A stretch of 64,000 bases of DNA from a virus (IMGVR_UViG_3300031413_000603:12150-76149), one strand, 5' to 3'. Numbered from the stretch's first letter, positions 29,648-64,000 are shown. Notes: generated by a model not told the origin, from the letters alone. Program-made: numbers and translations.

Positions 29648-29671
29648 TGGTAGGCGCGATTGGACTCGAAC
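29648..29671 (-). repeat. att core: duplicated tRNA 3' end (probably tRNA-Val)
   Basis: Reverse complement GTTCGAGTCCAATCGCGCCTACCA is a T-loop, acceptor strand and CCA; no upstream tRNA body present. Confidence 0.85.
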
Positions 29672-29832
29672 TAATATAGCAGCCTAGCAGATACATGGCT
29701 TGAGAGTGAGGAGGCCTGCTCCTGACACCCTAGCACCCCCTGGGATACGCGCCAATGTCCCACGGATTTGTCCCCGGCTAGCGGGCCTCTGTCACCCAGC
29801 TAGGTGCTTCCGATCCTTCCCCTGCCTCCAGG

Positions 29833-30015
29833 CTAACGCAGCTCTGAGGCTGCCGCTTCACTCTCCTGCAGTACCTGGATGATCCTGCGTTTGAAATCTT
29901 TGCATACCCCAGGATCAGCAAGCTGCTCTTTCAGCCTTCTGCGCTGGTTAGGGTCCTTGGCCAACCCTTGAAGCCGTGGTGTAGGGTCTGAGTGACGACC
30001 TTTGTTGTGTCTCAT
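29833..30015 (-). CDS. 60-aa basic hypothetical protein
   Basis: GGAGG RBS before ATG at 30015. Confidence 0.55.
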   Translation of the reverse strand: MRHNKGRHSDPTPRLQGLAKDPNQRRRLKEQLADPGVCKDFKRRIIQVLQESEAAASELR

Positions 30016-30384
30016 GCTGCCTCCAGTTGTTGAGGTGCCAGTGTCGCAAGTCACACAGCCTTCCTTCTGCGGTCCAATTTCGCATCACTGTGGACGCATA
30101 GACCAGGCGCTCGGTCGCGGCCCGGCGGCCACGGCGTCGCCGCTCAGGTGCGGCGCTGGAGCGTCGTGCCTGCCGCCCTTCTCCTGCACAGCCCCCCGCC
30201 CTTTGCCGGGTTCGGAATCAATGTTGCAGCGGAGCAACGGGGGTCTCGCCAGTGTTCACCGGCCTATGGCGTCTCACTGGCAAATATCCGCACCTCTTCC
30301 AAATGTCCGGAGCTGGTTCGGACGTTTGCCTCACCCTGCAAACTGAAAGAGAGCCTGCCAAGACCTTGGCCATACACTTGGGAT

Positions 30385-30819
30385 ATGACCAAGCATCTAG
30401 AACATCTCGCTCTGCGCATACATGGCGCTTTTGAAGCGATCCCCTCACGCCTCTGGAGCAAAAGAGGAGGTCCATTCCCAAGAGGGTGGTGCTCAGATGC
30501 ATCACAAGTGTGCGGGGCAATTCTTAGCGACCATGGCCACACCGATTTCGTGTGCGTTAACGGAGCGCGTGGAGAGGACCGCAGCCAGAGCCACTCCTGG
30601 CTGTCAGGCTATGGATTGATTATTGACCTTACCGCCGGTCAATTTGATGATGCACCCGAGGGAGTTGTCATATTCAGAAATACTTCTTGGCATCAACAGT
30701 TCAAAGACCAAGAAGAAACTCTTGCGGACTTCAGAGAACTCACGCACAGCGGTTTTGGCGACATGAATAACCTGCCCGATATTTATCAATACATATCTTC
30801 CAAAATAATCAGCACGTAA
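30385..30819 (+). CDS. Cys-His-Asp (papain/transglutaminase-like) domain protein
   Basis: FPRGWCSDAS...SHSWL...IIDLTAGQF; lower GC than flanks. Confidence 0.7.
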   Translation: MTKHLEHLALRIHGAFEAIPSRLWSKRGGPFPRGWCSDASQVCGAILSDHGHTDFVCVNGARGEDRSQSHSWLSGYGLIIDLTAGQFDDAPEGVVIFRNTSWHQQFKDQEETLADFRELTHSGFGDMNNLPDIYQYISSKIIST

Positions 30820-30821
30820 AA

Positions 30822-31376
30822 TCAAGGCGCATTGGCAATGTCCTGCATCGACATATACATAACAGCATTGAGTTGCAAGCCGTCATACCAGCCGACGAAG
30901 CCATCAATGGATTTCCCCTGCATCGCATAGTCTACTTTTAAAGATCTCCAACCCACAGGAAAGCCATTTGGCGAAAGAAAATGCCATCTACCGTTGTGAG
31001 ATATGGCATTTCGCAAGTGTCTAGCCAATGAGTACCATTCCTCATCTTTAATTTTCTCCGGCGATGCCGCTTTGCATGCTTCAAAGGAGTCAGATAGCAT
31101 TGAGTAGAAACTATTTTGCACTACGGCCATTGCGGCACTCTGAGGAATTGAACGGCCAAATTCAAATCTATAAGATACCCCCTGCGCTGGTTTAAAATCC
31201 TCATGCGCAGCATTAACTGAGAGATCTATATTAGTCGCGCTTATACTATATTCAGAAATCAAAGATGCGGCAGGCTCTTTTGTGAGCAGTGCATAAGCTC
31301 CCAAGCTAAAAATGAAAGAATCCCGAGATTGCTTTAATTTAAATAACGCATCTTGCGCCGCCTGCTGTGAACCCAT
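30822..31376 (-). CDS. HEPN-like RNase, candidate defence protein
   Basis: RNAISH (R-X4-H) motif in a helical 184-aa protein; AT-rich. Confidence 0.7.
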   Translation of the reverse strand: MGSQQAAQDALFKLKQSRDSFIFSLGAYALLTKEPAASLISEYSISATNIDLSVNAAHEDFKPAQGVSYRFEFGRSIPQSAAMAVVQNSFYSMLSDSFEACKAASPEKIKDEEWYSLARHLRNAISHNGRWHFLSPNGFPVGWRSLKVDYAMQGKSIDGFVGWYDGLQLNAVMYMSMQDIANAP

Positions 31377-31627
31377 TTCACACCCCCTAAAAGCATTGAA
31401 AATTAATTATGGAATTGAGTATAGGTCGAGCCCGCCCCCTCTTGGCCCTGAGACTGAAATCACATAGTTGTACTATTGCAACGCCCGCTTGACTTCGCTG
31501 CGCCAAGCTGCGGGGGGAAAGGGGGTAAGCTGAACTTACACCCCTAGGGCAGAATAATTTCTGGAATATTTTTCGCTGGAAATTTCATAGGGTTGAGGTC
31601 TTGGCCAACCTTGCAAAAACCACGATC

Positions 31628-31712
31628 TGTCAACCAACGAACCCTGCAAATTTGGCGTTTTGTCAACCTCGCGCCTGCCTTTTGTCAACCTTAGGCAAGC
31701 GCATTGTCAACC
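31628..31712. repeat. Four TGTCAACC direct repeats spaced 33, 22 and 22 bp
   Basis: Starts at 31628, 31661, 31683 and 31705. Confidence 0.85.
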
Positions 31713-31713
31713 T

Positions 31714-31980
31714 TCACCCCCAGAACTGCCCGTGCAATAGCTTCAGCCGAGACGCCAGCGTTTCCGGGTCGTGCTGCATGTGCAGGATGGGTGTGGTGCC
31801 AATGCTTACATGCTCATACCAGATATGGAAGGCGCGGGCTTTGGGAAGCATTTGGGCTGTATCCCTGATGGCCCCAGCGATGGAGCTGGCGGTAAAGCTG
31901 AGAGCTTCTGAATGCTCGTTCATGACCCGGGCCAGGTACTGACCGGGCACGCTTTTTTCAATGTGCAGACTCTGGATCAT
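31714..31980 (-). CDS. 88-aa hypothetical protein, second gene of the LexA-boxed operon
   Basis: ATGA overlap with the stop of 31977-32267. Confidence 0.65.
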   Translation of the reverse strand: MIQSLHIEKSVPGQYLARVMNEHSEALSFTASSIAGAIRDTAQMLPKARAFHIWYEHVSIGTTPILHMQHDPETLASRLKLLHGQFWG

Positions 31981-32267
31981 TTTTTCACTTCGGGGACGAA
32001 TTGAATGGTGCCTATTTTCTCCGCCTCGATGTCGCCGGGCGTAGGCCGTATCCAATGGATCCACAGCCCCTTCATCCAGGCCAGCGCGTACAGCACGCTT
32101 ACTGCGAAGATCCCCCATTGCTCGGCCTTCCACGAGGCGTAGAACCAGAACGGCTGGCCCAATATGCCGAAGATGCAGGCCCAGCGCCTGAAGCTCTCAG
32201 AACGAGCCTGCGACAGCCAGGCGGCAGCTGCACCTAACACCGCGATAGCAACCTGATCGAATTGCAT
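31977..32267 (-). CDS. Small multi-TM membrane protein, homologous to 23614-23859
   Basis: GQPFWFYASWKAEQWGIFA; GAGG RBS. Confidence 0.8.
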   Translation of the reverse strand: MQFDQVAIAVLGAAAAWLSQARSESFRRWACIFGILGQPFWFYASWKAEQWGIFAVSVLYALAWMKGLWIHWIRPTPGDIEAEKIGTIQFVPEVKK

Positions 32268-32284
32268 GCGTTACCTCAAAACTA

Positions 32285-32300
32285 CTGTTTATACGTACAG
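32285..32300. promoter_or_regulatory. LexA (SOS) box
   Basis: CTGT-TTATACGT-ACAG, 18 bp upstream of the 32267 start. Confidence 0.85.
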
Positions 32301-32346
32301 CATACAGATGTGCCGATTGCACCCTTGACAAGACGGGATTTACAAG

Positions 32347-32571
32347 ATGGCGGACGACGCCCACTCCTGGAAAATTTTCCGGAAGTCGGTCGAGGATGTG
32401 GAAAATTTTCCACATCCTTATGAGCGCGTGGCAATTGGCGAGGCTATTGAGAAGGAATTGCAGGGACGCCAGTTGGCAACCCTGAAGCAGAACTCCGAGG
32501 TGGAAAATTTTCCACAACGGCACACACCAGAAGGCAAGACCCGCGACCTGGTAGCCAAGGCCACTGGGTGA
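32347..32571 (+). pseudogene. Remnant of a ParB/Spo0J-like phage gene
   Basis: ERVAIGEAIE...GRQ...VENFPQ...GKTRDLVAKATG resembles the HTH entry of phage ParB-like proteins, then stops. Confidence 0.5.
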
Positions 32572-32861
32572 AATGCGCATGAAGTCCGGGGTTGAGAACC
32601 CTCCGGAAAATTTTCCGGAGGGTAAGCTGGGACAGGTACGCGAGCAGGCAGACAAGCTACACGGCTGAATTCTCAGCCATCTGAGATTGAGGATTGGATT
32701 TCAAATCTCACCCTCTGCCTCTGGGGTAGGTTCACCGTGGCCGCCCAATAGCACAGCTCAGTTTTGAGCCATGACAGGGCCTACCCAAAATTTGGGTAGG
32801 CCCAATCAGATTTGAAATCCGATTGGGTCAGCCGGCTCAATTTTGAGCCCGTTGATATCAA
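32369..32861. repeat. Dense cluster of AT-cored palindromes
   Basis: GGAAAATTTTCC core at 32369, 32394-32417 (24 bp perfect), 32500-32515 and 32598-32623 (26 bp perfect); GGCTGAATTCTCAGCC 32663; GCTCAGTTTTGAGC 32756; GGGCCTACCCAAAATTTGGGTAGGCCC 32777-32803; CCCAATC..GATTGGG 32801-32827; GGCTCAATTTTGAGCC 32834; TTGATATCAA 32852. Confidence 0.9.
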
Positions 32862-32875
32862 TGGAGGATCTTGGG

Positions 32876-33238
32876 CTAGTGGCGCTTTGAAGCGATCCAA
32901 AGAACCGCGATGAACCAGAGCACCGATCCAATCACAAAGTCCTCAACGGTGGTCTTGCGATTGCTGGAAAGGATGGCGAAAGCTGCCCCGCCGAATGGTG
33001 AACAGAACAGCCCAACCATCACGACAAAGCTTCCAAAGTCGCTGTCGCCTGACCGGCCACTGAGTCGGTTTATGAACTCGCCAAGAGCCCCAAGTCCGAA
33101 CATCAGCCCAGCCATGACAGCAATGGCCAGGCCAACAACGATTAGTGAGCCCAAGCCGCCGCCCAGCCGCTCATTCGCAAAGGCAGGCAGCGCTGCTGAA
33201 GCGAGCAGGACTGCTGTAAATGATTTTGCTGGGCGCAT
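32876..33238 (-). CDS. Membrane protein (signal peptide plus about 3 TM)
   Basis: 120 aa, hydrophobic segments. Confidence 0.7.
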   Translation of the reverse strand: MRPAKSFTAVLLASAALPAFANERLGGGLGSLIVVGLAIAVMAGLMFGLGALGEFINRLSGRSGDSDFGSFVVMVGLFCSPFGGAAFAILSSNRKTTVEDFVIGSVLWFIAVLWIASKRH

Positions 33239-33310
33239 GTGCCTACACCTCAAGACGGGCTTTAGATGGAGCGATCATAGCCGCAGAGCGTTCGGTGAGC
33301 TGGATGGCGA

Positions 33311-33333
33311 GCACTACAAAAGTTTTGTAGTGC
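33311..33333. repeat. Perfect 11-bp-arm palindrome GCACTACAAAA-G-TTTTGTAGTGC
   Basis: Read directly; lies between the giant gene and the membrane gene. Confidence 0.85.
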
Positions 33334-33355
33334 AAGCGATCGGCTTGCCCGTGCC

Positions 33356-42075: not shown

Positions 42076-42104
42076 GAGAAAACCTTTGTGAATATTGCCG
42101 ACCG

Positions 42105-42776: not shown

Positions 42777-42780
42777 TGCT

Positions 42781-43134: not shown

Positions 43135-43213
43135 GATTGTTTCCTGAGAAAAGGCCCGTCGGCACCTGGCCAACGGGCGAAAGGGCGAGTGAACGCCCGA
43201 CCACTGAGAAGAC

Positions 43214-44779: not shown

Positions 44780-44945
44780 GTCATGCTCCAAAAATTGACG
44801 ATTACTTGTCGGGACATGACGCCGCCCATTGCGAAAACATGGCATGGGTGGCCAAGAGCACCAGCCTGTTTAACGCCCAGCCAGGGCGACAACCCGTTGT
44901 TTTGCGGCTGCAAGGTGGGTGAGACCCTGCAGCCGATTGCGCGCT

Positions 44946-48076: not shown

Positions 48077-48078
48077 GG

Positions 48079-52683: not shown

Positions 52684-54103
52684 CGGGATACCTCTTTGAA
52701 ATGCGTTGACCGGTGGTGGTGTTGCTGGTGAGGGATTCGGTCGATTCGGACCAGCGCTGATACTTGCCGTCGAAGTGCAGCGCCATGTCGCTCTGCCCCA
52801 CATCCCGGCCCTTGATGGCGCCAAGGCCCTTGATGGATGGCTCATCGATGCCGCCCTTCTTGTGGTCCCACAGCACCAGGATTACGTCGGCGTCTTCCTC
52901 GATCGCGCCGCATTCCTTGAGGTCCGCCATGATTGGTTTGGGATTGGAGCGCTTCTCGACATCCCGGTTGAGCTGGGATAGCAAAGCAATGGTGATACCC
53001 AGTTGGCCAGCCAGGCGCTTTAGGGTGCGGGTGATCTCTTCCAGCTGCACCCGGCGGTCTTTTCGCTCATCGGTGGCCGTCATCAGTTGCAGGTAATCGA
53101 TGACAACCAGCTTGACCTTGTGCTTGCGCACCAGCTTGCGCGCCTTGGCAGAGATCTCCGCAATGTTTGCGCCTGGGCAGAATTCGAAGTACAGCGGGAG
53201 ATTTCTCATGCGCTCGATGGCATCCGGCACCCGGCCCAGGTCATCGTTGCTGAGCTGGCCTGTCTTCAGCAAGCGCAAAGGCACGCGGCCCAGGTTTGAT
53301 ACAGCACGCCGCATTAGCTCCTGCTCTACCATCTCCATACCTAAGAACGCAGAGGGATAGTCTCGTTCGGCCTGATTGATCGCGATTTGCTGTGCAAAAG
53401 AGGACTTCCCGATGGATGGACGCGCAGCGATGATGATCAGCTGCCCATCGAATAGGCCGCCTGCCAGGATGTAATCCAGTCCAGGGATGCCTGTTTCCCG
53501 CGCAAGCTCGATCTTCCCGTCTACCAAGTCCTCAAGATGTGCCAAGAACGGCAGGGCCAGCTCACCTACCGATTTCGCCTCAGAGGTTATACGGTCGTCG
53601 ACCACCTCTTCGAACATCGACACGGCGCGGCCGGTGATCTCCTCGGCAGACAGCGCCTTGTCGCGCAACAGGTCACCCAGCTTGTCGTATGCCTCAGACA
53701 CCAGGCGCAGCTTGTGCAGGTTCGCCACAATCTGGGCGTGGTGCGCAACCCTTCGCACGGAGGCGAAAGAACTGGCCAGGTTGTTCAGGTAGTTCGGCAG
53801 ATCGAAGGCATAAGCCTCGTCCACCTTGCCCTGTAGGCCCTGCAGCACGATCACAGGGTCGATGTCCTGCCCGGCCAGCACCAGAGCCTCCACCGCAGTC
53901 CAAATGCCTTTGTGCAGGGGGTGAGCAAAGCTGCCTGCCGAAATCAGCCCTGCAGCCTGGTCGAATGCTTCCGCGCCGCCACTGAGCAATGCACCCAGCA
54001 CGCTCTGCTCTGGAACCAGCGACGGATCCTTCCACATTGGCACTGCCTCGGGCGGAAACTGCCCGTCAAATTCGTTCATAGCGATATCGTTCCTGGCGTT
54101 CAT
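52673..54103 (-). CDS. dnaB: Replicative DNA helicase (DnaB family)
   Basis: AARPSIGKS, IDYLQL, LSQLNR, GAIEEDADV. Confidence 0.95.
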   Translation of the reverse strand: MNARNDIAMNEFDGQFPPEAVPMWKDPSLVPEQSVLGALLSGGAEAFDQAAGLISAGSFAHPLHKGIWTAVEALVLAGQDIDPVIVLQGLQGKVDEAYAFDLPNYLNNLASSFASVRRVAHHAQIVANLHKLRLVSEAYDKLGDLLRDKALSAEEITGRAVSMFEEVVDDRITSEAKSVGELALPFLAHLEDLVDGKIELARETGIPGLDYILAGGLFDGQLIIIAARPSIGKSSFAQQIAINQAERDYPSAFLGMEMVEQELMRRAVSNLGRVPLRLLKTGQLSNDDLGRVPDAIERMRNLPLYFEFCPGANIAEISAKARKLVRKHKVKLVVIDYLQLMTATDERKDRRVQLEEITRTLKRLAGQLGITIALLSQLNRDVEKRSNPKPIMADLKECGAIEEDADVILVLWDHKKGGIDEPSIKGLGAIKGRDVGQSDMALHFDGKYQRWSESTESLTSNTTTGQRISKRYPDEF

Positions 54104-54852
54104 AGCCCTCCCGTCCGGTGGCTAGGCCACTTGCACAACAGCAGCTGCGAGTTCTCCCGCAGCCGGTCGTATGCGCGTTCGCCCAGCGTCTTCTGCATGT
54201 CCGGGCCCTTGAGGTTGGACAGCACCACCGTTGGACGGCCGAGCTTGTAGCGAAGGTCGATCACGTCCAGCAGCTGCATGCGCTCCTTATCCGTGTCGAA
54301 TCCCACGCCGACCTCGTCGATCACCAGCAAGCCCATGCGGCCAAACCGATCAATCACCTCGCCCTCGGTTTCCAGGCCTGCGCCGCTTTTGCGGCCCCAG
54401 GTATCCCGGAGCAATCGAACCAGCTCCCGAGCGCTGAAAATCGCCGCCTCGGAGTGTCGCGCATGGATGAAATGGCTCACCATCGCGCTGCCCAAATGGG
54501 TTTTGCCGGTGCCCGGCGGTCCGACAAGCCAGAGATTCGTGCCCGCGTCCGGCTCTGCGGCGTCCACAAACGCCTGGCAGGCCGCTAGCACTTCGTTCTG
54601 AGCTGGGTGGCTGGTGTCGAAGTTTGCGAAGGTGGCGCGCAGCATGCGGCCTTCCATACCGCTTTGGCCCAGCATGTAGACCACCTCCTTGGCGCGCTGT
54701 TCGGCCTGCGCTTGCAGCCGAGCCTGTTGGTCACGCTCATTGATCTCAGCCTGCACACACCCCCAGCACCGCGTCCAGAAGCCCGTAAAGCTGGTTTTCC
54801 GGGATTCATAGTCGCCATGTACGGCGCAGTGTTCTTTTCGTGTTTCAGTCAT
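54100..54852 (-). CDS. DnaC/IstB-like helicase loader ATPase
   Basis: GPPGTGKTHL, LLVIDEVG, PTVVLSNL, YDRL. Confidence 0.92.
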   Translation of the reverse strand: MTETRKEHCAVHGDYESRKTSFTGFWTRCWGCVQAEINERDQQARLQAQAEQRAKEVVYMLGQSGMEGRMLRATFANFDTSHPAQNEVLAACQAFVDAAEPDAGTNLWLVGPPGTGKTHLGSAMVSHFIHARHSEAAIFSARELVRLLRDTWGRKSGAGLETEGEVIDRFGRMGLLVIDEVGVGFDTDKERMQLLDVIDLRYKLGRPTVVLSNLKGPDMQKTLGERAYDRLRENSQLLLCKWPSHRTGGL

Positions 54853-55733
54853 CTCCAGTTCTCCGCACCTTCGTAGTAGGCGGCATCAAAGCCCGATTGC
54901 TTTGTGCCCGGCGTCGCGGCCTTTGCGCCGTCGTTCGCCTTGCGCAACGGGAACAGGCCCTGCCAGCCGTTGGCAATTGCGTTCTCGATCACCGCAACCG
55001 GGTCCTGTCCTTCTTCGCGGTACTTCCCGAGGTTCCGCAGTTGCAGCTTGGCACCGTCTTCGGTGATGGGCCGCTTGGCCTGCTTGCGATTGCGAACCCA
55101 CATCTGCCAGGTCTCGTTTGGCAGCCAGTCAGGCAAGGCGATGGAGGCAGCGTCAAAGGCTTGAGAAGCTCGTGCGCGCTTATGTATTGGTTCCTTTACT
55201 GGTTCCATTACTGGTTCCTTACTGGTTCCGTGTCCCGTTTTTGGTACTGTTTCATGGGAAATTTGGGACTCTTTCATGGGAAAAACGGTACTGTTTGATG
55301 GGAAACCCGGTACTGTTCCGTTTCCGGTACTGTTCCGTTTTTGGGCTTCTTTAACAGTGCCAATTTCGGGACTGTTATCGTCGTCGTTCGGGGGGTAATC
55401 TGCCCCCTGGTTTTGGGAAAATTGGGACTCTTTCACATCAGCCTCAACAGGCCCAAAATTGGGTGTCTTTAGCCTGAAAATTGCGATCTGTTTTGTCCTG
55501 CCGGCCTTGCCTCCTGTGTCCTCGATGTAGCCCTTCTCCAGCAGGTATTTCATGCCCGCCAGAACTGTTTTGCGGTCCTGCGCGGTGGTTTCTGACAAGT
55601 GGGCAACCGATGGCCAGCACAACCAGTCTTCGGACTTTTCATTCACGCAGTCAGCCAAGGCCACCAGCAAGAATTTCGCGGGTGACTTCTGTAGTGGTTG
55701 AGCCAAGGCCCAGCGGATTGCGTCAAAGCTCAT
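54849..55733 (-). CDS. Phage replication initiator (wHTH)
   Basis: AKFLLVALAD...CWPSVAHL..T.QDRKTV; C-terminal NAIANGWQGLF. Confidence 0.9.
   Translation of the reverse strand: MSFDAIRWALAQPLQKSPAKFLLVALADCVNEKSEDWLCWPSVAHLSETTAQDRKTVLAGMKYLLEKGYIEDTGGKAGRTKQIAIFRLKTPNFGPVEADVKESQFSQNQGADYPPNDDDNSPEIGTVKEAQKRNSTGNGTVPGFPSNSTVFPMKESQISHETVPKTGHGTSKEPVMEPVKEPIHKRARASQAFDAASIALPDWLPNETWQMWVRNRKQAKRPITEDGAKLQLRNLGKYREEGQDPVAVIENAIANGWQGLFPLRKANDGAKAATPGTKQSGFDAAYYEGAENWR
55199..55334. repeat. Iterons inside the initiator gene (probable ori)
   Basis: GGTACTGTT at 55243, 55287, 55309 and 55326; ACTGGTTCC repeats at 55199-55229. Confidence 0.7.
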
Positions 55734-55806
55734 GCACCACCTTTCGTGGCGGTGCCGGAGGCCTTCAATGCATCGTGGACAGGCCCAGCGGCAGGCGTGC
55801 TGCCAT

Positions 55807-56205
55807 TCATCCCACAGCCCTCAGGTTTGTCGTGTCTCCCGTCTGCGCTTGCAGCTTGGCCAACGCCTTGAGCGCGATGTTCAGAGTTGCAGTGGCGCTG
55901 TCGATGGTGTCTGCAATGCGGGCGGCTTGATCCCCAGCAGCCTTACGATCTGGCCGGGCGTGCAGCGTCTCGTCGCATGCGTAGTAGAGTGGGTCGAAGG
56001 AGCCACAGAAGCGCATGGCGGCGATGATCTGCCCGAAGGTCAGCCGTTCATCCTTTTCTGGATTGAGGCAAGCACGTAGACGTGCGTGTGCCGAATCCAG
56101 CTTCATGTGGGGATAGAGGAATGCCGCGACCTCCTTGGCAGACTTCTCGCTGCTGGAGATCATTTGGGTCAGTGCGTCGTATTCGTCTTCGTAGATGGTC
56201 TTCAT
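55807..56205 (-). CDS. CII-like regulatory protein
   Basis: Position after cro; AHARLRACLNPEKDERLTFGQI. Confidence 0.7.
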   Translation of the reverse strand: MKTIYEDEYDALTQMISSSEKSAKEVAAFLYPHMKLDSAHARLRACLNPEKDERLTFGQIIAAMRFCGSFDPLYYACDETLHARPDRKAAGDQAARIADTIDSATATLNIALKALAKLQAQTGDTTNLRAVG

Positions 56206-56574
56206 ATATAGTTCTTTGAAATTAAATGAAAAAAGTACGTTACCCCTCACCTCCCCTCAAGCTGAGGGGTCCTGAGGGGTGCTTTTTTCGGCCAAAAAAA
56301 AGATGATTCAGTCATCGACAAATCAACCACTGAGTCAGCCATGAACAACTTCACTTCCAACGCCTTCCACACCAGCGCCAAGACCAGCATCTCTACCAAC
56401 ATGGATGCCGATACAGGAGCGCAGACACGCCGGCTCACCACATCTACGATTGAGATGTTCTGGCGCGACGGGTTGCTGGTGATAAAGGGGAAGGCATCGG
56501 CGATTACGCTGCCGGTGAGGGAGACGGTTGGGCGTGGCCGGATGGCTAGCAAGCGTGCGGCGCGATGAGGACAC

Positions 56575-56835
56575 TTAGTCACGACCGGCCTCCAGTGGCT
56601 CAGCCAGTTCTGGCCAAATCTCTTGCCAATCGTTCGGACGAAGTTCTTTGCGCGTGGCTACGCCGCGTGACTCCGCCAACGGTGCAAGGCGAATTAGCTT
56701 GTCGCTAGGGATACGCAGCACACAACGTCCATCCCTCCATGCGGAGACAGAGGGGGACTTGATGCCTAGAAGCGTGGCAACTGCGCCTGTTCCTCCAAGC
56801 GCATCCACAAATTGGGTAGCGGTCATAGTGATCAT
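56575..56835 (-). CDS. cro: Cro-like (YdaS-type) repressor
   Basis: ALGGTGAVATLLGIKSPSVSAW; ELRPNDWQEIWPEL. Confidence 0.88.
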   Translation of the reverse strand: MITMTATQFVDALGGTGAVATLLGIKSPSVSAWRDGRCVLRIPSDKLIRLAPLAESRGVATRKELRPNDWQEIWPELAEPLEAGRD

Positions 56836-56850
56836 ATGGCCTCCATTATT

Positions 56851-56910: not shown

Positions 56911-57621
56911 ATGACTCTCGCTGACCGACTTATTGCCGCCCTGGCGCACGCCAAAATTAGCCAAGCTGAGCTAGCACGACGCTGTGGTGTGAGCGCTCCC
57001 AGCGTTAACGGCTGGCTTAGCGGGAGGGCAAAATTCTTGCGCGGTGAAAACCTGTTGAGCGCTGCCCAAGCCCTTGGTGTGAACCAGCAATGGCTGGCTA
57101 ATGGTGAAGGCCCAATGCTTCCCTTGGATCCAAAGTCCCAGAACGAATTGGTCGGTCTGCCGTCGCTATCTCCAACTCCCCAGCCGGGTGAAATGGCAGT
57201 AGACATTCCACTGCTCGCAAACGCTGGGAGCATGGGCCCGGGAACTGACGTTGAGCACGATGATGTGATCATCGGGGCACTCAGGTTATCGTCAGAATGG
57301 GTCCAGAAGCGCATCCGCCCTACATCCTTAGCGGCGCTTAGCTTTATCCACGCCTATGGTGACTCTATGAGTCCCACTTTTGAGGATGGCGACATTCTTC
57401 TGGTGGACACGGGCCGCAAGGATCCCTCCATGGCGGATGGTGTTTATGTCCTGGGAACCCACAAGAGAGTCTTCATCAAGCGAGTCAGCGAGCGGTTTGA
57501 CGGCTCCAGGATGGTATCCAGCGACAACAAAAACGTACCCCTTGTCCAGGAGCTAAATGGAGACAGTGAAATCGAGGTGCTCGGTCGTGTGGTGTGGGCT
57601 TGGAATGGGCGAAAACTTTAG
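56911..57621 (+). CDS. cI: CI-like repressor (HTH plus S24 autopeptidase)
   Basis: SQAELARRCGVSAPSVNGW; NAG cleavage site; GDSMSP; FIKRV. Confidence 0.95.
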   Translation: MTLADRLIAALAHAKISQAELARRCGVSAPSVNGWLSGRAKFLRGENLLSAAQALGVNQQWLANGEGPMLPLDPKSQNELVGLPSLSPTPQPGEMAVDIPLLANAGSMGPGTDVEHDDVIIGALRLSSEWVQKRIRPTSLAALSFIHAYGDSMSPTFEDGDILLVDTGRKDPSMADGVYVLGTHKRVFIKRVSERFDGSRMVSSDNKNVPLVQELNGDSEIEVLGRVVWAWNGRKL

Positions 57622-57672
57622 ATCGCATCGGGACTGGGCCTCTACTTACCGCCTCCCAACCGAGCTCAAGCG

Positions 57673-57696
57673 AACCGCCCTATGAGGCGGTTTTTT
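57673..57696 (+). terminator. Terminator after cI
   Basis: AACCGCC-CTATGA-GGCGGTTTTTT. Confidence 0.8.
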
Positions 57697-57737
57697 CACG
57701 TCCATGAACCACGGAGACAAAAAAATATTCAGAAAGT

Positions 57738-57778
57738 TAGCCACTCCTATTGACATATAGATTAGCCACTCCTAACAT
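57738..57778 (+). promoter_or_regulatory. PL/OL: sigma70 promoter overlapped by two operators
   Basis: TTGACA 57750-57755, 17-bp spacer, TAACAT 57773-57778; TAGCCACTCCTA at 57738 and 57763. Confidence 0.88.
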
Positions 57779-57806
57779 GAAGGCTCTTATTTACCTAAGG
57801 ACCGAC

Positions 57807-58271
57807 ATGCAAACCCCCTCTCCCGCTGTACTCACCTCCATCACCGGTGACGGCCCAATGATGACGCTCGACCTGGCAAAGGTCCCCGCCTCTGCTATTG
57901 GAGCTCTGGTGGCCGCGGCCACGGTCGTGATGCTCGACTGGGACAATTTGGATCTCATCGCCGTCGTGGGCTCTGCCGCCGCAAACGATATGGATAACCT
58001 GACCTCTGCACTGGAACTGCTGAACGGGTTGTACCAGGAGACGATTCCCAGCCGCGAGGTCATCGTCAACTGCGGCTATGGCAGCGCCTGCGACCCGCTT
58101 GGCTACCTGGTCATTCGCAACGATGCCCCGACCTTCGTGCCAGCGCAAGAACTCACCGAAGTGGAGAAGGTCGCCACCCGACGCTGGCTCCAGCATTGCG
58201 CACAACGTGCGCAAGAGAGTGCCGAGAGCTTCACCGGCCGTCTGGCTCAATTCGAACGGGAGTCCGTATGA
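57807..58271 (+). CDS. Early hypothetical protein
   Basis: First ORF after PL, AAGGA RBS. Confidence 0.65.
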   Translation: MQTPSPAVLTSITGDGPMMTLDLAKVPASAIGALVAAATVVMLDWDNLDLIAVVGSAAANDMDNLTSALELLNGLYQETIPSREVIVNCGYGSACDPLGYLVIRNDAPTFVPAQELTEVEKVATRRWLQHCAQRAQESAESFTGRLAQFERESV

Positions 58272-58849
58272 CCAAGGGCGTAACGTTGGCCAAGCGTGGC
58301 TTGTGCGAGTTCTGCCAGGGTCAAACCTCCCATGGCCCTTGGACCGACGCGCAGATGCAAGAGGTTTGCCATGAAATCGGCATCGATCCGGTAGCTTTCG
58401 GCGATACCTGCGATGACTGTTTTGTCACCGGGGTAGGCCGGAAGGATGCGGTTTACGCCCAGTCGCTCGTCAAACGCCCCTTGGAAGTGAGAAACACGGA
58501 GTATCAGCGCCAATTGAAATTCATGGCTGCTGGCTTGGCCCTGCAGGCTTTCCGCGACAAGTATCCAGACAGCTATCGCCAACGGCGCGAAGAATCCGCG
58601 CATCTCTTCCAAGAGCTGATGGAGCATGCGCCTCCCGAGGTGCTGGAGCAGTTCAGGGCGAAGGCAAAGGAGCTTGATCTGTTGCCCGAGACAAAGTTTG
58701 TCGATGACAACGGGCGCCCTCTTTACACATCCGTCCAGATCGCAACGAAGCTGGGGATGTCAGTCGAGGATGTGGAAAAAGACATCCGAGAAAACCTGGG
58801 CGAAAAGTTGGAAGCCCGCCCGGTTGGCCGGATCCATCAGGTCCATTGA
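58268..58849 (+). CDS. Early protein with CxxC...CxxC and a C-terminal HTH
   Basis: CEFC...CDDC; YTSVQIATKLGMSVEDV. Confidence 0.6.
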   Translation: MTKGVTLAKRGLCEFCQGQTSHGPWTDAQMQEVCHEIGIDPVAFGDTCDDCFVTGVGRKDAVYAQSLVKRPLEVRNTEYQRQLKFMAAGLALQAFRDKYPDSYRQRREESAHLFQELMEHAPPEVLEQFRAKAKELDLLPETKFVDDNGRPLYTSVQIATKLGMSVEDVEKDIRENLGEKLEARPVGRIHQVH

Positions 58850-58882
58850 GGCTCAGCCAAGCCACCGAAAAAGGAAAACAGA

Positions 58883-59161
58883 ATGAAATCAGCACTGACG
58901 CCTATCCACTGGGAATGCTATGCGGCGGAGAACGGAAAACCCAGCGAGAGCGCCCGGGTTGTCGACCTCCGCACCCTCCCAGAAGATGTCAAGGTCGCCA
59001 TCATCCAGGCAGCGCTGAATGTCAGCTTCCGCTTCTCCAATGGGCAATTCGACGTCGTCCAGGAAGATTCCGAAGAGGATGCAGCCCTTGCCGACTTGGC
59101 TTGCGCTGTGGAGGGTATCCGCCCGCATATGCACGATGTGGCGCTGAAACACTGCCCGTAA
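58883..59161 (+). CDS. Early hypothetical protein
   Basis: 92 aa, AAGGA RBS. Confidence 0.6.
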   Translation: MKSALTPIHWECYAAENGKPSESARVVDLRTLPEDVKVAIIQAALNVSFRFSNGQFDVVQEDSEEDAALADLACAVEGIRPHMHDVALKHCP

Positions 59162-59172
59162 GGAAGAGCGAC

Positions 59173-59922
59173 ATGAATGAGCTCATACCTGTATCGCCGG
59201 ACCTGATCGGCACCGACACAACCCTGTCAGCAAATGCGCGGGATCTCCATGAGTTCCTCGCCGTGGATACCGATTTCAAGGACTGGATGCCTCGCCGCAT
59301 CGAAGAATACGCATTCGAAGAGGGCAAAGACTTTCGCTCATTTTTGGGCGAAAGTACCGGAGGCCGTCCGCCAAAGGAATACATGCTCAGCCTGGACATG
59401 GCCAAGCAGCTGGCAATGGTCGAACGCACGCCCAAGGGCAAGATGGCCCGTCAGTATTTCATCGACTGTGAACGGCGCGCTATGGCTGGCGTGCTGGCTA
59501 TCCCCACCTCAATGCCGGAGGCGCTGCGCCTAGCTGCCGACCTGGCAGAGCAGAAGCTTATTGCGGAAGCGGAGCGGGACGAAGCCATCCGAACCAAGGC
59601 CCAGATCGGGAACAAGCGTGAGGCGACTGCCATGGCGACCGCCTCAGCAGCGACACGCGAGGCCAACCGCCTCAAGGCCGAACTGGGATTCAACGCGAAG
59701 CACGCGACCATCGGCGCCGTTGAAAACGCCAAGAGCATCAGCCTTCCTAAGTCGGCTTTCGTTGACCTGCGCCGCGCCACAAAGCGGCATGCCTTGGAAG
59801 CGCCTAGCGTGCCGGACAAACGCTGGGGCAAGGTCCGCGCATGGCCGGCCGTCGCCTGGCTGGAGTGCTTCGATATCGATTTGCAGGAGCTGTTTCCTGC
59901 GCCCTGCGGAGAACCCGCGTGA
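59173..59922 (+). CDS. AntA/AntB-type antirepressor
   Basis: NARDLHEFL...FKDWM.RRIEEY.F.EG.DF; LSLDMAKQLAMVERT.KGK.ARQYFI. Confidence 0.9.
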   Translation: MNELIPVSPDLIGTDTTLSANARDLHEFLAVDTDFKDWMPRRIEEYAFEEGKDFRSFLGESTGGRPPKEYMLSLDMAKQLAMVERTPKGKMARQYFIDCERRAMAGVLAIPTSMPEALRLAADLAEQKLIAEAERDEAIRTKAQIGNKREATAMATASAATREANRLKAELGFNAKHATIGAVENAKSISLPKSAFVDLRRATKRHALEAPSVPDKRWGKVRAWPAVAWLECFDIDLQELFPAPCGEPA

Positions 59923-59998
59923 ATACAAAAGGCGAAACCCCTGAGCAGGTGAGAGCGCTCAAGGGTTTCTAGACCCGAACCCTTACCAGGAACGAACC

Positions 59999-60808
59999 AT
60001 GGAAGCAATTATCTCGCGTCCAAAGACGGACGCCAAGCAGAGCCCTACGCGCAAGCAGGCAAAGCACAGCGAGCCAGTGCCAGCGCGCCCAACTGAGGCC
60101 GAGAGCCTGCAGACGGAAGCTCTGCATATCCTCCACTACCTGTGCAGAGAGCTGTCCGAGACGGAACTCAGTTTGATACCCCATGCGAAGGCCGAGGCAA
60201 TCGAATGCGACACGGTGATCTTCAATCTAGTGAACCCTGAAGAATCGGATAGCCCTCAAATCGGCACCTTGGAAAGCCTGGTGATGCTGCGTCAGTGCGT
60301 GCAAAACACTTTCGCATGTCTTGAGGATGCTTCTGGCCCGAATGTGCCGGCGGCTGCAGCTTCTGCCGCCTTGCTGGAGTTCATCGACACACTCGCGGCA
60401 AGATTGCACACAGCAATTGCAGGCTTGCCAGGCACCCTGGAAGATCTCCGAGCATTAACCACTTTCGCTGGCATCAAAACCTTCCGCGACCGGCCTATAC
60501 CGCCAATCCAGCCGACAACTGCGCCCGCACACCAGCCCACTCATGAGACTGGCGAGGTGGGTACACAGCTTGCTCTGCGGTGCACTTGGGACATCGATGC
60601 ACTTGCTTGTGAGATCGCTAAGCTCGCCGGCAGGGTGCGCGAATATGACCCCCTGCCTTTGGAAAGTGTGTTGCTCTGCTACAGCCATCGTATGCAAGCT
60701 CTCAACAACCTGGTCATGGCACACCTCGACCAGGACGGCACGACCGCTGGCGAAATGCATAAGGGACTTTTCTTTGGCTCACGCGCCTTCACAGGAGAAG
60801 AGCAATGA
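59999..60808 (+). CDS. Early hypothetical protein
   Basis: 269 aa ORF, operon-coupled. Confidence 0.65.
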   Translation: MEAIISRPKTDAKQSPTRKQAKHSEPVPARPTEAESLQTEALHILHYLCRELSETELSLIPHAKAEAIECDTVIFNLVNPEESDSPQIGTLESLVMLRQCVQNTFACLEDASGPNVPAAAASAALLEFIDTLAARLHTAIAGLPGTLEDLRALTTFAGIKTFRDRPIPPIQPTTAPAHQPTHETGEVGTQLALRCTWDIDALACEIAKLAGRVREYDPLPLESVLLCYSHRMQALNNLVMAHLDQDGTTAGEMHKGLFFGSRAFTGEEQ

Positions 60809-61290
60809 ACGCCGTACTGGAAAAGCCCGCAAGGAAGATTCGCGCTCCAAAGGCTGCACCAGCGCCTGAAGTGAATGCACGAGCGGCATCGGTTGAGCAG
60901 ACCCTGAATCTAGCGGCAGCCGTTGCACCGGAAGTGGCTTCCAAGCAGTTCTCCAAGGAACAACTGAAGAAGCTTCACTGGGAAGCGTTCGGGTGCATGA
61001 CGAACGCATTCTCTGTCCTTCTTCACTACGCCCAACACGCCGAGGATTCAGCAGTTTTCGCCATGCGAGACCTATTGGAGGTCTATCTAGCCGAGGCTGA
61101 GCCGAGCTTTAATAAAGATGGGGATGTTCATGATCACCTCTCCGATATTTCGGTTGACCTCTCAAAGATTCTCGCATTGGTTGACGCGCATGCGATGAGC
61201 AACGACGACACCGTGATGCATGGGATCGCCGACCTTCTCTCTTGCGCTCAGCGGATCGCCGGTGGTGACAAGGGGGTGCTTGATGCCTGA
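60805..61290 (+). CDS. Early hypothetical protein
   Basis: 161 aa, ATGA overlap. Confidence 0.65.
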   Translation: MNAVLEKPARKIRAPKAAPAPEVNARAASVEQTLNLAAAVAPEVASKQFSKEQLKKLHWEAFGCMTNAFSVLLHYAQHAEDSAVFAMRDLLEVYLAEAEPSFNKDGDVHDHLSDISVDLSKILALVDAHAMSNDDTVMHGIADLLSCAQRIAGGDKGVLDA

Positions 61291-61567
61291 ACTGAACAAT
61301 ACCAAAGAGGCCCAGGACGCAGTCAAGGCCTGCGAGTACGCGCACCTGTACCTTCAAGTACTGGGCGACGTGCTCCGCGGCTATGAGCGCTATTTGCCCG
61401 CGGCGCAGATTGAAGAAATCACTCGTCTGCGAAATGCGATGTGGAATGAGATCGCAGCTGCCAAGCATGTTGTTTTGCCCAAGAGCGACGAGGCGTTTCT
61501 TCAGTTCAAGGCGAAGGTGGCTAAGAAACCGCGCAAAAACTCTCGCCTGTACAAGGAGATGCTATGA
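61283..61567 (+). CDS. Early hypothetical protein
   Basis: 94 aa, overlaps neighbours. Confidence 0.6.
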   Translation: MPELNNTKEAQDAVKACEYAHLYLQVLGDVLRGYERYLPAAQIEEITRLRNAMWNEIAAAKHVVLPKSDEAFLQFKAKVAKKPRKNSRLYKEML

Positions 61568-61968
61568 CCAACAGGACAGACGCCGCCGTAGCAACGCTGG
61601 AGAACCTCGGCTACACCCATGAGGGCGGCATGCTCTGGAAACCGCCGCTGGGAAAAGCGCCCGACTTCAATCTGCTGGATACCTTGCACGCCCGCATCGC
61701 CTCCCTGGAGGGCCAGCTCATCACCCAAACGAATCGCGCCGTGGCGGCCGAGCAGCTACTCGCGCTGCGCGCCATGCCTACTTGGGAGCCGACATTTGAT
61801 GCGATGGTGCCTGGTCAGGAGGATCTGGTGATGCAGTTCTGTATGGAGATCGCGGGCCCCAAAGGAACGCCAGGACGCTTGCCCGATCCAGTCCGCCTGA
61901 TGGAAATGGCCGAGGCGCTGTACCAGATTGAGCGAGCGCACGCTACTGCAGAAATCATTGAGGGATAA
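61564..61968 (+). CDS. Early hypothetical protein
   Basis: 134 aa, GGAG RBS. Confidence 0.65.
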   Translation: MTNRTDAAVATLENLGYTHEGGMLWKPPLGKAPDFNLLDTLHARIASLEGQLITQTNRAVAAEQLLALRAMPTWEPTFDAMVPGQEDLVMQFCMEIAGPKGTPGRLPDPVRLMEMAEALYQIERAHATAEIIEG

Positions 61969-61970
61969 GC

Positions 61971-62306
61971 ATGAGCAAAAACCTAATCCTGGCCGGGGAC
62001 AGCAACATCCCCGCCCTACCGATGACCGAGGCCCAGGTAAACCACCTGCGCCGGCTGCTGGCCTGGCTGCGCTGCGAGTACATGCTGGATGAAGACATGC
62101 AGCGCGGATTTATCAGCGGCGCGGCCCTCTCCGTTCAGCATGGTTGCTCAACGCCTGAGCGCGCTGGCGAGATCCTGCAGCAGCAGGCCGACAAGATCAA
62201 CCAGGTGCCCGCATACATTCGCCAGGGCCACAAGATGCTCAGCAAGGCCTTGCTGGAGCATGACAAGAGATCCGGAATCGTGGAGGCAACTGATGACCTT
62301 TCCTGA
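61971..62306 (+). CDS. Early hypothetical protein
   Basis: 111 aa, GAGG RBS. Confidence 0.65.
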   Translation: MSKNLILAGDSNIPALPMTEAQVNHLRRLLAWLRCEYMLDEDMQRGFISGAALSVQHGCSTPERAGEILQQQADKINQVPAYIRQGHKMLSKALLEHDKRSGIVEATDDLS

Positions 62307-62643
62307 TTCAACGCGCGAAGTCTTTGAGAGGAACTACGCCCCTTGCATGTCGGCTGAAGATTCAGCCCTCATATTTCGACGATGGCAAAACGGCCGCTAC
62401 TTCGAAAGCGAAGTACAGGTGCGTTATGAGGGCTGGCAAGCAGCGATGGAGCACATTCAGGCCGGCTGCCGCGGTGGCGCAATCCACCTTGAGACGGCGG
62501 AAACCCGCATGGATGCAGGGCCCGCCGTGGTGGCCGACAGGTGTTGGTCAAAAGAAAACCTGCAGGCCATGCCGGTGAGCGAGAAACCTGCAGGTGCTGC
62601 AGGGGTTCCAAAGATTGCTGGGAAAAAGGGAGACCAACCATGA
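62293..62643 (+). CDS. Early hypothetical protein
   Basis: 116 aa, GGAGG RBS. Confidence 0.55.
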   Translation: MTFPDSTREVFERNYAPCMSAEDSALIFRRWQNGRYFESEVQVRYEGWQAAMEHIQAGCRGGAIHLETAETRMDAGPAVVADRCWSKENLQAMPVSEKPAGAAGVPKIAGKKGDQP

Positions 62644-62849
62644 TGATGGAAGCTCCAGTTCAAGTAGCACCAGCGCGATACGTCACGATCAAGCTGGCTG
62701 CAAGCATTACCGGATTAACCGTGAAAGCTATTGAGCGAAAGATTGCCCGAGGGGTATGGCTCCTCGGCAAGCACTACAAAAAAGCCGATGGCGGCATTTT
62801 TATTGATATGAAAGAAATAGAGCAATGGGTCGCGAAGGCAACGGCGTAG
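62640..62849 (+). CDS. xis: Excisionase
   Basis: RYVTIKLAASITGLTVKAIERKI..GVW..G.HY.K; directly before integrase. Confidence 0.88.
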   Translation: MMMEAPVQVAPARYVTIKLAASITGLTVKAIERKIARGVWLLGKHYKKADGGIFIDMKEIEQWVAKATA

Positions 62850-64000
62850 AGCTGCGAGAAAAGTCCATCCGAGTGAGCTTTACGCTCGATGGAGTGCGGC
62901 AACGCATAACTCTCGAGATCCCCCCCACCCCGATCAATGAGCGGTATGCGGCAAAGCTGGTAGTCCGAGTCCGCAAAGCAATTGCTGATGGGTCGTTTGA
63001 GTGGAAGGAATATTTCCCAAACTCCGCGCAAGCAAAGGCAAAGCAACCTGCACATACGTTTGGCGGGTGGTGTGATTTATGGTTCGATACCAAGGGCCGG
63101 TTGTCCAAGAGCACTCTGAACCAGTATCGAAACGCCTTGATCGTTTGGAAAGCCTTACTTGGGGCGGATACTCCAATGGATCAGGTCTCGCATGCAGTGG
63201 TAGCAGCCACCGTCGGCAAGACCCCATGGAAATCAGCGAAGCTTCTGAACAACTATTTGATTTGCCTGCGAGGAGTATTTGCTCTGGCTGGTCGCAGCCT
63301 CAAGATGGATAACCCCATGGAGGGGATCGAGAACAGCAGGCACCAGATCCCGCCGCCAGACCCTCTTTCCACTTTTGAGATGGAAAGAGTGCTTTCACAC
63401 CTGAAAGAAAGATTCGACGTCCGGGCCTGGGCGTATTTTGAATTCGCTTTCATGACCGGAATGCGGCCAGAAGAGTTAATCGAACTTCGCTGGGGTGATG
63501 TGGACTGGGCAAGCTCATCCATCCGCGTAGAGCGCGCCAGGACTTCGGGCGAGGTGAAGCCGCTCAAAACATACAACTCCCGCGATGTCGACCTCGTCAG
63601 CCGTGCCCTCGGCGCGCTTGAGGCCATGAAGACCTGGACGATGCTGGGCGGGGTTGACCATCTTGATGGCGAGCAAGGCCGCCGGATCTTTGAGAACCCA
63701 GGGACCAATAAGCCTTGGCACGATGAACGCAGCCAGCGGGACACGTATTGGCGCCCCGCCCTTCGGGCGACCGGCATCCGGTGGCGCCGGCCGTACCAGA
63801 CGCGACACACCTACGCCACCAACGCACTAAGCGCTGGCGTGAACCCCACCTACATTGCCAGACAGATGGGGCACAAGAACGCGAAGATGCTTTTCACCGT
63901 CTATGCCAAATGGATTGACGGGTCGGATCGTGGGCGGGAGAAGGCGAAGCTGGAGCTGCTGCTCGGAAATGAAAAAACCGCCCTAAAAAAGGCGGTTTGA
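62825..64000 (+). CDS. int: Tyrosine integrase with arm-binding domain
   Basis: TGMRPEEL (catalytic R); PYQTRHTYA (usual H-x-x-R reads YQTR); QMGH; YAKW; stop at 64000. Confidence 0.97.
   Translation: MGREGNGVELREKSIRVSFTLDGVRQRITLEIPPTPINERYAAKLVVRVRKAIADGSFEWKEYFPNSAQAKAKQPAHTFGGWCDLWFDTKGRLSKSTLNQYRNALIVWKALLGADTPMDQVSHAVVAATVGKTPWKSAKLLNNYLICLRGVFALAGRSLKMDNPMEGIENSRHQIPPPDPLSTFEMERVLSHLKERFDVRAWAYFEFAFMTGMRPEELIELRWGDVDWASSSIRVERARTSGEVKPLKTYNSRDVDLVSRALGALEAMKTWTMLGGVDHLDGEQGRRIFENPGTNKPWHDERSQRDTYWRPALRATGIRWRRPYQTRHTYATNALSAGVNPTYIARQMGHKNAKMLFTVYAKWIDGSDRGREKAKLELLLGNEKTALKKAV

Follow-up and report, generated by a model that had tools for sequence, protein, structure and literature searches.

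A candidate capsid-forming satellite family of AP1-like podophages in Comamonadaceae

Main

Can an element that builds its own podovirus-type head, and encodes neither a tail nor a means of lysing its host, be a mobile unit in its own right? This question is raised by a 64,000-nt stretch of viral DNA (the window), comprising bases 12150-76149 of the 76,149-bp virus record IMGVR_UViG_3300031413_000603. Within it, an integrated element extends from an attachment (att) fragment at position 29648 to an integrase gene in which the contig stops, at window position 64000. A preliminary description, made from the window sequence alone, had proposed that this element might be a satellite borrowing tail and lysis functions, with a tidy deletion derivative as the alternative; the computational checks that we ran all fell on the satellite side. 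We report here that the element is probably a helper-dependent capsid-forming satellite of podophages resembling AP1 (OM049504), a podovirus of 55.6 kb whose head measures 70 nm and whose tail measures 45 nm (PMC11597636), and a member of a conserved family of ~35-38 kb found in Comamonadaceae. Judged by similarity, the host of the window element is also a member of the Comamonadaceae.

Results

The element encodes a head and an adaptor and no tail or lysis genes

PHROG and Pfam scans of the open reading frames (ORFs) in the window bore out the late gene order of the preliminary description, which runs from terS to a giant gene (Table 1). The element encodes its own capsid protein, portal, terS, terL and adaptor, a combination that characterizes the phage-inducible chromosomal islands that form their own capsids (cf-PICIs). 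The adaptor scored 95 bits against Pfam PF24175 (cut-off 27) and is homologous to a 219-aa protein of AP1 and to gp48 of Epa33 (NC_073676), an F116-like Hollowayvirus. It is separated from the following gene, which encodes a 672-aa protein, by the 29 nt (42076-42104) described previously. Two small head proteins of 133 and 154 aa are both also present in the tailed AP1. The model of the 133-aa protein (predicted local distance difference test score, pLDDT, 89) matched best, among PDB entries, chains that serve as cement or decoration in the Pam1, KHP30 and GP4 capsids, and we rejected this protein as a fibre candidate because its predicted fold is that of a capsid cement jellyroll.

In the same scans, no element ORF matched a tail or lysis family, in agreement with the earlier claim that the element has no nozzle, fibre, holin, endolysin or spanin. 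Tail genes and holin are the 'forbidden components' of the satellite-detection tool SatelliteFinder (PMC10085698). Using tBLASTn with 41 tail and lysis proteins from AP1, Epa33 and the podophage POI1126, we found no homologue in the window element or in nine family members; in the positive control, an F116-like Pseudomonas prophage (L056), a holin and a muramidase were found directly after its giant gene. The head-closure protein Hc3 (phrog_8040; a 419-aa protein in AP1) likewise had no homologue in the element or in the family members, and neither the profile scans nor tBLASTn uncovered a lysin among the hypothetical proteins, a result that the preliminary description had named as one that would count against its reading. 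Judged by gene content, the family therefore encodes a pac-type terminase, immunity and replication functions, a complete head, an adaptor ring and in-head proteins, and nothing beyond the adaptor.

The proteins after the adaptor form a conserved, presumed ejection pair

If the adaptor is the last structural element of the particle, what are the two large proteins encoded after it? The two ends of the 672-aa protein are homologous to Epa33 gp61, which directly precedes the giant gp62 in that phage, and to an 848-aa protein of AP1 that matches phrog_11341 and phrog_2534 ('released from the phage upon host infection'). Its AlphaFold2 model (pLDDT 58) has a disordered N-terminal half, a 130-residue helix (residues 458-590) and a small beta domain, and Foldseek returned no PDB fold match. 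PDB sequence searches with the 672-aa and giant proteins also gave no matches. The preliminary description had asked whether the 672-aa or 133-aa protein might fold as a nozzle or fibre; the latter resembles a cement jellyroll, as set out above, while the former does not look like a nozzle, in view of the disordered half, the long helix, the lack of a PDB fold and the coexistence of its gp61 homologue with a full tail. The low model confidence means that this rejection is not fully closed.

The giant gene starts at M62 of a longer ORF, at 40006, and a close relative shows in-frame stops upstream of this start; the resulting product has the 2216 aa estimated previously. It matches Pfam LPD39 at 1.8e-46 and has, besides this domain, an effector region at the N terminus that varies and a C-terminal region of PLxRFG/DarB-like type, the latter 93% identical to copies in two Comamonas genomes. 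The giants of relatives bear LPD1, LPD5, LPD38, LPD39 and ART-PolyVal domains, which identifies these giants as polyvalent proteins, and the window protein has the corresponding hallmarks of multiple domains including an LPD, a DarB-like C terminus and a position at the end of the virion genes. Its homologues are giant virion proteins of ~60-kb podophages. Since the 672-aa protein and the giant have counterparts that coexist with a full tail in Epa33-type phages, we consider them a conserved pair of internal virion proteins, and the giant is presumed, from its homologues, to be packaged in the head and injected.

Separately, four loci in Comamonas, Acidovorax and Delftia (L043, L054, L065 and L077) hold 3' remnants of giant genes (the last 90-540 codons) with no head genes upstream, which suggests decayed or rearranged family copies.

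The same layout recurs at three tRNA sites and in circular genomes

Searches with the adaptor and the C-terminal part of the giant recovered 22 viral contigs and 41 genome loci. Five prophages were delimited by both att repeats: three at tRNA-Val, in Alicycliphilus denitrificans Ylb10 (G006; 27-nt repeat, 38.4 kb), an Acidovorax metagenome-assembled genome (MAG) (G009; 27-nt repeat, 37.6 kb) and a provirus record (G001; 26-nt repeat, 37.9 kb); one at tRNA-Leu in Acidovorax sp. (G007; 58-nt repeat, 36.0 kb); and one at tRNA-Pro in Ottowia thiooxydans DSM 14619 (G008; 56-nt repeat, 35.4 kb). All five show the order adaptor, 672-aa homologue, giant, and the giant ends 0.5-6 kb from the att site; in G007 it ends just 470 nt from the tRNA. 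Complete members thus measure 35.4-38.4 kb, as opposed to the ~55-66 kb of autonomous podophages.

In two ENA contigs, NODE_125 (37,844 bp) and NODE_323 (37,231 bp), the two ends overlap exactly, by 20 and 34 nt, respectively. Both contigs continue from the giant through small ORFs spanning 1.6-2 kb to the integrase and then to the early genes. The end overlaps and the continuity from giant to integrase indicate that these are circular genomes crossing attP. Contig G004 likewise spans attP, and the repressor of the NODE contigs was also found in an integrated copy in a sequenced genome. Accordingly, the adjacency of adaptor and ejection genes and the absence of lysis genes, whose recurrence the preliminary description had left to be examined, are seen at three att sites, with different integrases and in several Comamonadaceae genera, as well as in two circular genomes.

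We next compared the window with its nearest relative, L003, which has the same att site and layout, using the Nei-Gojobori method to estimate the ratio of nonsynonymous to synonymous substitutions (dN/dS). Values were 0.03 for terS, 0.04 for terL and portal, 0.02 for the capsid protein and the 133-aa protein, 0.11 for the 154-aa protein, 0.15 for the scaffold, 0.09 for the adaptor, 0.17 for the 672-aa protein and 0.13 for the giant, and giant ORFs across the family are intact at 2200-2860 aa. The head genes, on which the preliminary description had proposed to measure selection, are hence under strong purifying selection (0.02-0.15). The heads are 97-99% identical, and amino acid identity is 82% for the adaptor and ~60-69% for the 672-aa protein, compared with 96-99% for their neighbours; while dS is 0.15-0.45 in the head genes, it reaches ~1.4 in the adaptor and 672-aa genes, far above their neighbours. 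This excess divergence indicates replacement by recombination.

The G007 copy (Acidovorax sp. WCS2018Noco2-16; L081-L083) encodes a terL of ~895 aa with a ~1.1-kb in-frame insertion at the equivalent of residues 59-67 of the window terL, which may be an intein.

Capsid and portal are lineage-specific, while the adaptor is exchanged with tailed phages

Phylogenetic trees were constructed from rows labelled by gene content beforehand, as tail-less (adaptor, 672-aa homologue and giant) or tailed (AP1-type tail genes). In two capsid-protein trees (29 and 31 rows) and a portal tree (26 rows), a single branch with 100% support separated tail-less from tailed rows. The tail-less side contains at least six deep sublineages, each with a copy verified end to end as being without tail genes. 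In the adaptor tree, by contrast, the two labels are intermixed with strong support and at least three changes are forced: the window adaptor groups with the tailed contigs L006 and L007, that of the tailed prophage C10 with the tail-less G007 and C55, and the tailed L018 lies inside a tail-less group. An approximately unbiased (AU) test rejected monophyly of the tail-less adaptors (difference in log-likelihood 246, p = 6e-62). This pattern fits the earlier suggestion that a podophage, rather than the Mu-like prophage neighbouring the element, could be the helper, for an element whose dependence on a helper we infer.

Are candidate helpers found in the same hosts? A search of nine host genomes for the SU10_adaptor family found extra copies only in an Acidovorax MAG (G011; C55, C10, C24; L100-L107), where SU10-type adaptors are encoded by three elements: C55, which is tail-less and lies at tRNA-Leu; C10, a tailed prophage of the AP1-like kind; and an F116-like tailed prophage that has a giant of its own. 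The adaptors of C55 and C10 are 74% identical, compared with 54-55% to other adaptors, while their capsid proteins show the usual 70%. If the bin represents a single strain, this trio is a candidate natural satellite-helper set.

Among 50,697 records of cultured phages, none falls in the tail-less clade. The cultured relatives among the matches listed measure 55-66 kb, except for one distant 39-kb phage (31% capsid identity). As Comamonadaceae phages are poorly sampled, the absence of cultured tail-less members lends weak support.

Element bounds, control genes and cargo

The plus strand at the distal end of the element has the sequence TGGTAGGCGCGATTGGACTCGAAC, which is the tRNA-Val(GAC) 3' end in reverse complement, so the att fragment placed here by the preliminary description corresponds to a tRNA end. 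In G001, G006 and G009, identical copies of 26-27 nt flank the complete element; one terminates an intact tRNA-Val next to the integrase, and the other is situated past the giant gene. The integrase in the window is 66-69% identical to those adjoining tRNA-Val in these three relatives. It had been described as intact, but in fact runs off the contig end, which is why attR and the intact tRNA are missing from the window.

PHROG matches were found for both cI and DnaB, as expected from the preliminary description, and the repressor homologue in relatives bears a Peptidase_S24 domain. Small genes with no assigned identity also lie on the plus strand within 56911..64000. The 275-aa protein encoded between the replication genes and terS matches a D5-like transcriptional-regulator PHROG in two stretches as well as several helix-turn-helix (HTH) families and is kept in four relatives; on these matches it is a candidate late-gene activator.

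The slot between the giant and the att site carries cargo that differs in every relative. In the window, a convergent low-GC gene pair (30385-31376), one HEPN-like with an RNAISH (Rx4H) motif and the other encoding a Cys/His/Asp protein, had no PHROG or Pfam match and is candidate defence cargo. A 96-aa membrane protein has a 72%-similar inverted counterpart at 23692-23810 in the early region of the Mu-like neighbour (119-nt inverted repeat I1) and is 90% conserved in the relative G003. Four copies of a GGAAAATTTTCC palindrome, spaced by 31, 102 and 103 nt, lie between the two membrane-protein genes of the cargo and look like operator or iteron sites; a stretch within this array is 96% identical in G003. 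The 125-aa ORF after the giant was considered as a holin and rejected, given its signal peptide, the lack of a phage match and its lack of conservation in the family. In G001, the slot (L025:2962-7488) contains a 1508-aa ORF on the opposite strand, which was considered as a tail spike and rejected as an Rhs-family (YD-repeat) toxin gene.

Table 1. Positions of features in the window, counted from its first base
Feature	Position	Strand	Basis or remark
Transposable (Mu-like) siphovirus prophage, divergent arms	contig start to ~27400 (locus L002 + window 1-27400)		
Neighbour protease-capsid fusion	3174-5558	-	siphovirus head gene
Neighbour repressor	13986-14684	-	
Neighbour transposase A	15155-17374	rightward	ner-like gene, B and early genes also rightward
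att fragment, distal end of integrated element	29648..29671	-	last 24 nt of tRNA-Val(GAC)
Variable low-GC cargo	29672..33355	.	GC 0.51
Cys-His-Asp gene, ~144 aa, convergent with HEPN-like gene	30385-30819	+	translation
HEPN-like gene, 184 aa, RNAISH (Rx4H) motif	30822-31376	-	translation
96-aa multi-transmembrane (TM) protein	31977-32267	-	phrog_22312 'membrane protein'
GGAAAATTTTCC-core palindrome array	32369-32623	.	repeat scan
125-aa protein, signal peptide and three TM segments, after giant	32876-33253	-	TM scan
Giant polyvalent protein, 2216 aa	33356..40006	-	Pfam LPD39 and PHROG DarB-like families
672-aa gp61-like virion/ejection protein	40057-42075	-	phrog_11341
SU10/T7-type head-to-tail adaptor, docking ring for short tail	42105-42776	-	Pfam PF24175
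154-aa small head protein	42781-43245	-	also in tailed AP1
133-aa jellyroll capsid cement protein	43214-43615	-	predicted structure
Capsid protein (Phage_capsid_3)	43676-44845	-	PHROG/Pfam
Scaffold	44946-45950	-	head and packaging module
P22-like portal (PF16510)	45974-48100	-	PHROG/Pfam
terL	48079-49650	-	PHROG/Pfam
terS	49647-50624	-	PHROG/Pfam
Early-right operon	51311..56835	-	PHROG matches
Multi-HTH regulator, 275 aa, between replication genes and terS	51311-52138	-	PHROG
phrog_8117 protein	52135-52845	-	PHROG
DnaB-like helicase	52673-54103	-	PHROG
DnaC-like loader	54100-54852	-	PHROG
O-like initiator	54849-55733	-	PHROG
cro-like	56575-56835	-	PHROG
cI-type repressor	56911-57621	+	PHROG
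Ant-like regulator	58846-59922	+	PHROG
Tyrosine integrase	62825 to contig end	+	PHROG

The neighbouring Mu-like prophage

In the neighbouring prophage, the genes for lysis, head, tail and a DNA methyltransferase run leftward from 13441, and its minus-strand siphovirus set comprises terminase, portal, MuF-like protein, major tail protein, tape measure and distal tail proteins. The lysis genes and long-tail architecture previously attributed to it are thus borne out, with an endolysin, a spanin, a tape measure and a major tail protein. Its classification as B3-like is not, as the early arm is inverted relative to the late arm, unlike the B3 layout; such an inversion of the Mu/B3 order has been described for BcepMu. 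Nor does the element, described earlier as next to the prophage, directly adjoin it, since 27414-29647 is host DNA. This interval contains a gene of the beta-lactamase family (440 aa), and its sequence matches, at 85-90% identity, the flank of a related element that occupies the same att site. The tRNA att fragment, followed by host DNA conserved in a relative, shows that the element ends at 29648 and is uninterrupted. We also considered that the Mu-like phage had split a complete podophage and rejected this, because the 12 kb upstream of the window, as far as the contig start, contain no genes other than those for the siphovirus head and tail of the transposable phage.

Discussion

Interpretation and alternatives

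A satellite is the simplest account of an element family that has no tail or lysis genes, is mobile, is under purifying selection and exchanges its adaptor alone with tailed phages. The best reading is of a satellite that is functionally similar to cf-PICIs and of independent origin, with lambdoid control and its own ejection and anti-defence proteins. Derepression through the SOS-type cI repressor, possibly aided by the Ant-like protein, would lead to excision from tRNA-Val. The excised element would then replicate and package its own DNA into its own heads, which would be completed with tail parts from an AP1-like podophage, either co-infecting or co-induced, and set free by the lysis genes of that phage. 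Repeated swapping of the adaptor gene with tailed phages would maintain the fit to whichever tail is locally available.

Several points weigh against this interpretation. Helper dependence, particles and transfer are predictions from sequence. The sole case of co-residence, G011, is a MAG in which strains may be mixed; G006-G009 hold only the SU10-type adaptor of the element itself, and no Hc3 homologue was found in any of the five host genomes searched (G006-G010). These last two results suggest that the helper is usually an incoming phage. Control is by an ordinary cI/Cro switch whose repressor is of the S24 type, in place of a regulator that senses a helper. Podovirus tails are assembled stepwise on the filled head, so helper and element would probably have to share one cell. 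Adaptor mosaicism could reflect ordinary recombination at a module boundary, and many small ORFs have no assigned function.

It is unlikely, in our view, that the element is instead an autonomous temperate phage whose tail and lysis functions reside in unrecognised proteins, for example small ORFs, the giant's N-terminal half or portions of the 672-aa protein. Such a phage would account for the full lambdoid control and replication set with its own SOS-type repressor and for the circular genomes in metagenomes, and the many unannotated ORFs and the low-confidence 672-aa model leave some room for it. However, the gp61 and giant homologues of F116-like phages coexist with a 13-kb tail block and a lysis cassette and so are not the tail, and the N-terminal half of the giant consists of polyvalent effector domains in relatives. 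Besides these two proteins, no late-region ORF exceeds ~390 aa, the 470 nt in G007 are all that remains between giant and tRNA, and the Hc3, fibres and holin of the sister clade have no counterpart here.

A second alternative, which we consider distinctly unlikely, is that tail-less filled heads are the end product. They would be freed by any lysis and either joined to free tails outside the cell or transferred at low efficiency without a helper, similar to a cf-PICI-like 'chimeric particle' or a gene transfer agent (GTA). cf-PICIs do release tail-less capsids that are joined extracellularly to free tails (bioRxiv 10.1101/2025.02.11.637232), and the lack of a co-resident podophage in most host genomes would also be explained. 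Yet the published cf-PICI case uses pre-assembled long tails, and in heads that lack a head-closure protein the DNA may not be retained. Free, pre-assembled short tails are not known to occur.

That the satellite instead draws its tail and lysis functions from the long-tailed Mu-like neighbour is very improbable. The adaptor is of the SU10/T7 short-tail type and clusters with those of AP1-like podophages, and the element occurs elsewhere at other sites, where the stretches examined showed no Mu-like neighbour; the contig of the close relative G003, which shares the att flank, is too short to reveal one. In favour of this helper are its lysis and tail genes, located at least 2.2 kb away (its right end lies left of 27414), and the homologue of the 96-aa cargo membrane protein in its early region (I1).

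Finally, it is hardly credible that these elements are a defective prophage lineage, a tidy deletion derivative inherited passively with no particle spread, for which one could cite the single contiguous block (tail, lysis and small genes) missing next to attP relative to AP1, the truncated giant remnants at four loci and the 57-73% completeness that CheckV assigns to such proviruses, given three tRNA sites, different integrases, at least six deep sublineages in several genera, intact giant ORFs, dN/dS of 0.02-0.17 and assembled circular copies. Moreover, as the heads are AP1-like but the gp61-giant pair is F116-like, the layout is not a simple deletion of either known arrangement.

Implications

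Capsid-forming satellites in the literature (cf-PICIs and cf-PISPs) are of the HK97 type, and for cf-PICIs the use of long siphovirus tails has been reported. Our literature search found no description of a tail-less podophage-type satellite family such as this one. The balance of evidence tilts slightly towards the first capsid-forming satellite lineage that parasitises short-tailed phages, one that evolved independently, brings its own ejection and anti-defence proteins, borrows the external tail and lysis, and swaps its adaptor with its helpers. If so, the concept of capsid-forming satellites would come to include podovirus-type particles as well as elements that match a small phage in size, and a satellite would be able to bring its own ejection and anti-defence proteins. 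Current tools would miss or mislabel the family because its core genes are unlike the cf-PICI core of SatelliteFinder and CheckV calls its members incomplete proviruses. The combination of lineage-specific capsid and portal with an exchanged adaptor offers a testable, sequence-only rule for finding satellite-helper pairs and names candidate helpers. The elements bear variable cargo, such as the HEPN-like gene here and the Rhs toxin in a relative, and are found in several genera with plant-associated members, where they may be relevant to gene flow and to resistance against phages.

Comparison with known systems

AP1-like phages form the sister clade of the family in the capsid and portal trees. 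From terS to the adaptor, AP1 is collinear with the window element at 55-75% identity (71% for the capsid protein); in both, the adaptor is followed by the 672-aa protein or its homologue, and the integrase lies on the far side of the late genes. AP1 differs in what comes next: its 848-aa protein is followed by a 541-aa protein, Hc3, ~12 kb of structural and fibre genes, a holin and lysozyme and then the integrase, and it has no polyvalent giant.

The F116-like Hollowayvirus Epa33 shares with the element the adaptor homologue gp48 and a gp61-like protein directly before the giant gp62. Other ~60-kb podophages (POI1126, PEp14 and Parlo) also carry PLxRFG/DarB-like giants. In the F116-like and ~60-kb podophages, the C-terminal 850 aa of the giant are 30-33% identical to those of the window protein, rising to 65% in a Pseudomonas prophage. 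The 13 kb of tail genes between adaptor and gp61, and the lysis cassette (holin, muramidase) after the giant, are both absent here. Hence, the features of autonomous AP1-like and F116-like podophages that the family lacks are Hc3 with the tail block, a holin-endolysin cassette and a genome of 55-66 kb.

P4 and the classical PICIs resemble the family in requiring a helper for virion parts and lysis, as we infer for the present elements, and in integrating at tRNA genes. They use the capsid proteins of the helper and are far smaller, whereas the present family supplies all parts through the adaptor.

In overall strategy, the family is similar to the cf-PICIs, such as EcCIEDL933 and KpCIDSM30104 (PMC10085698; bioRxiv 10.1101/2025.02.11.637232), which likewise have their own capsid, portal, terS, terL and adaptor, no tail or holin, and accessory cargo. 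In both groups the adaptor varies independently of the packaging module; cf-PICIs with identical packaging modules carry different adaptor or connector genes, which has been read as a fit to different tails (bioRxiv 10.1101/2025.02.11.637232). The components themselves are different, as the family has no sequence relationship to the cf-PICI core. Instead of an HK97-type head with a prohead protease and an HNH nuclease, neither of which was among our PHROG and Pfam matches, it has a P22-like portal, a scaffold and a Phage_capsid_3 capsid protein, and its adaptor is of the short-tail SU10/T7 type, in contrast to the cf-PICI connectors for long siphovirus tails. The PICI-type left arm is represented by the integrase, while control is by a lambdoid cI (S24)/Cro pair and replication by O-, DnaC- and DnaB-like proteins, in place of an AlpA/MerR/Stl regulator and a primase-replicase. 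The family also encodes an ejection protein and a polyvalent protein of 2200-2860 aa. At 35-38 kb, members of the present family are two to three times larger than cf-PICIs.

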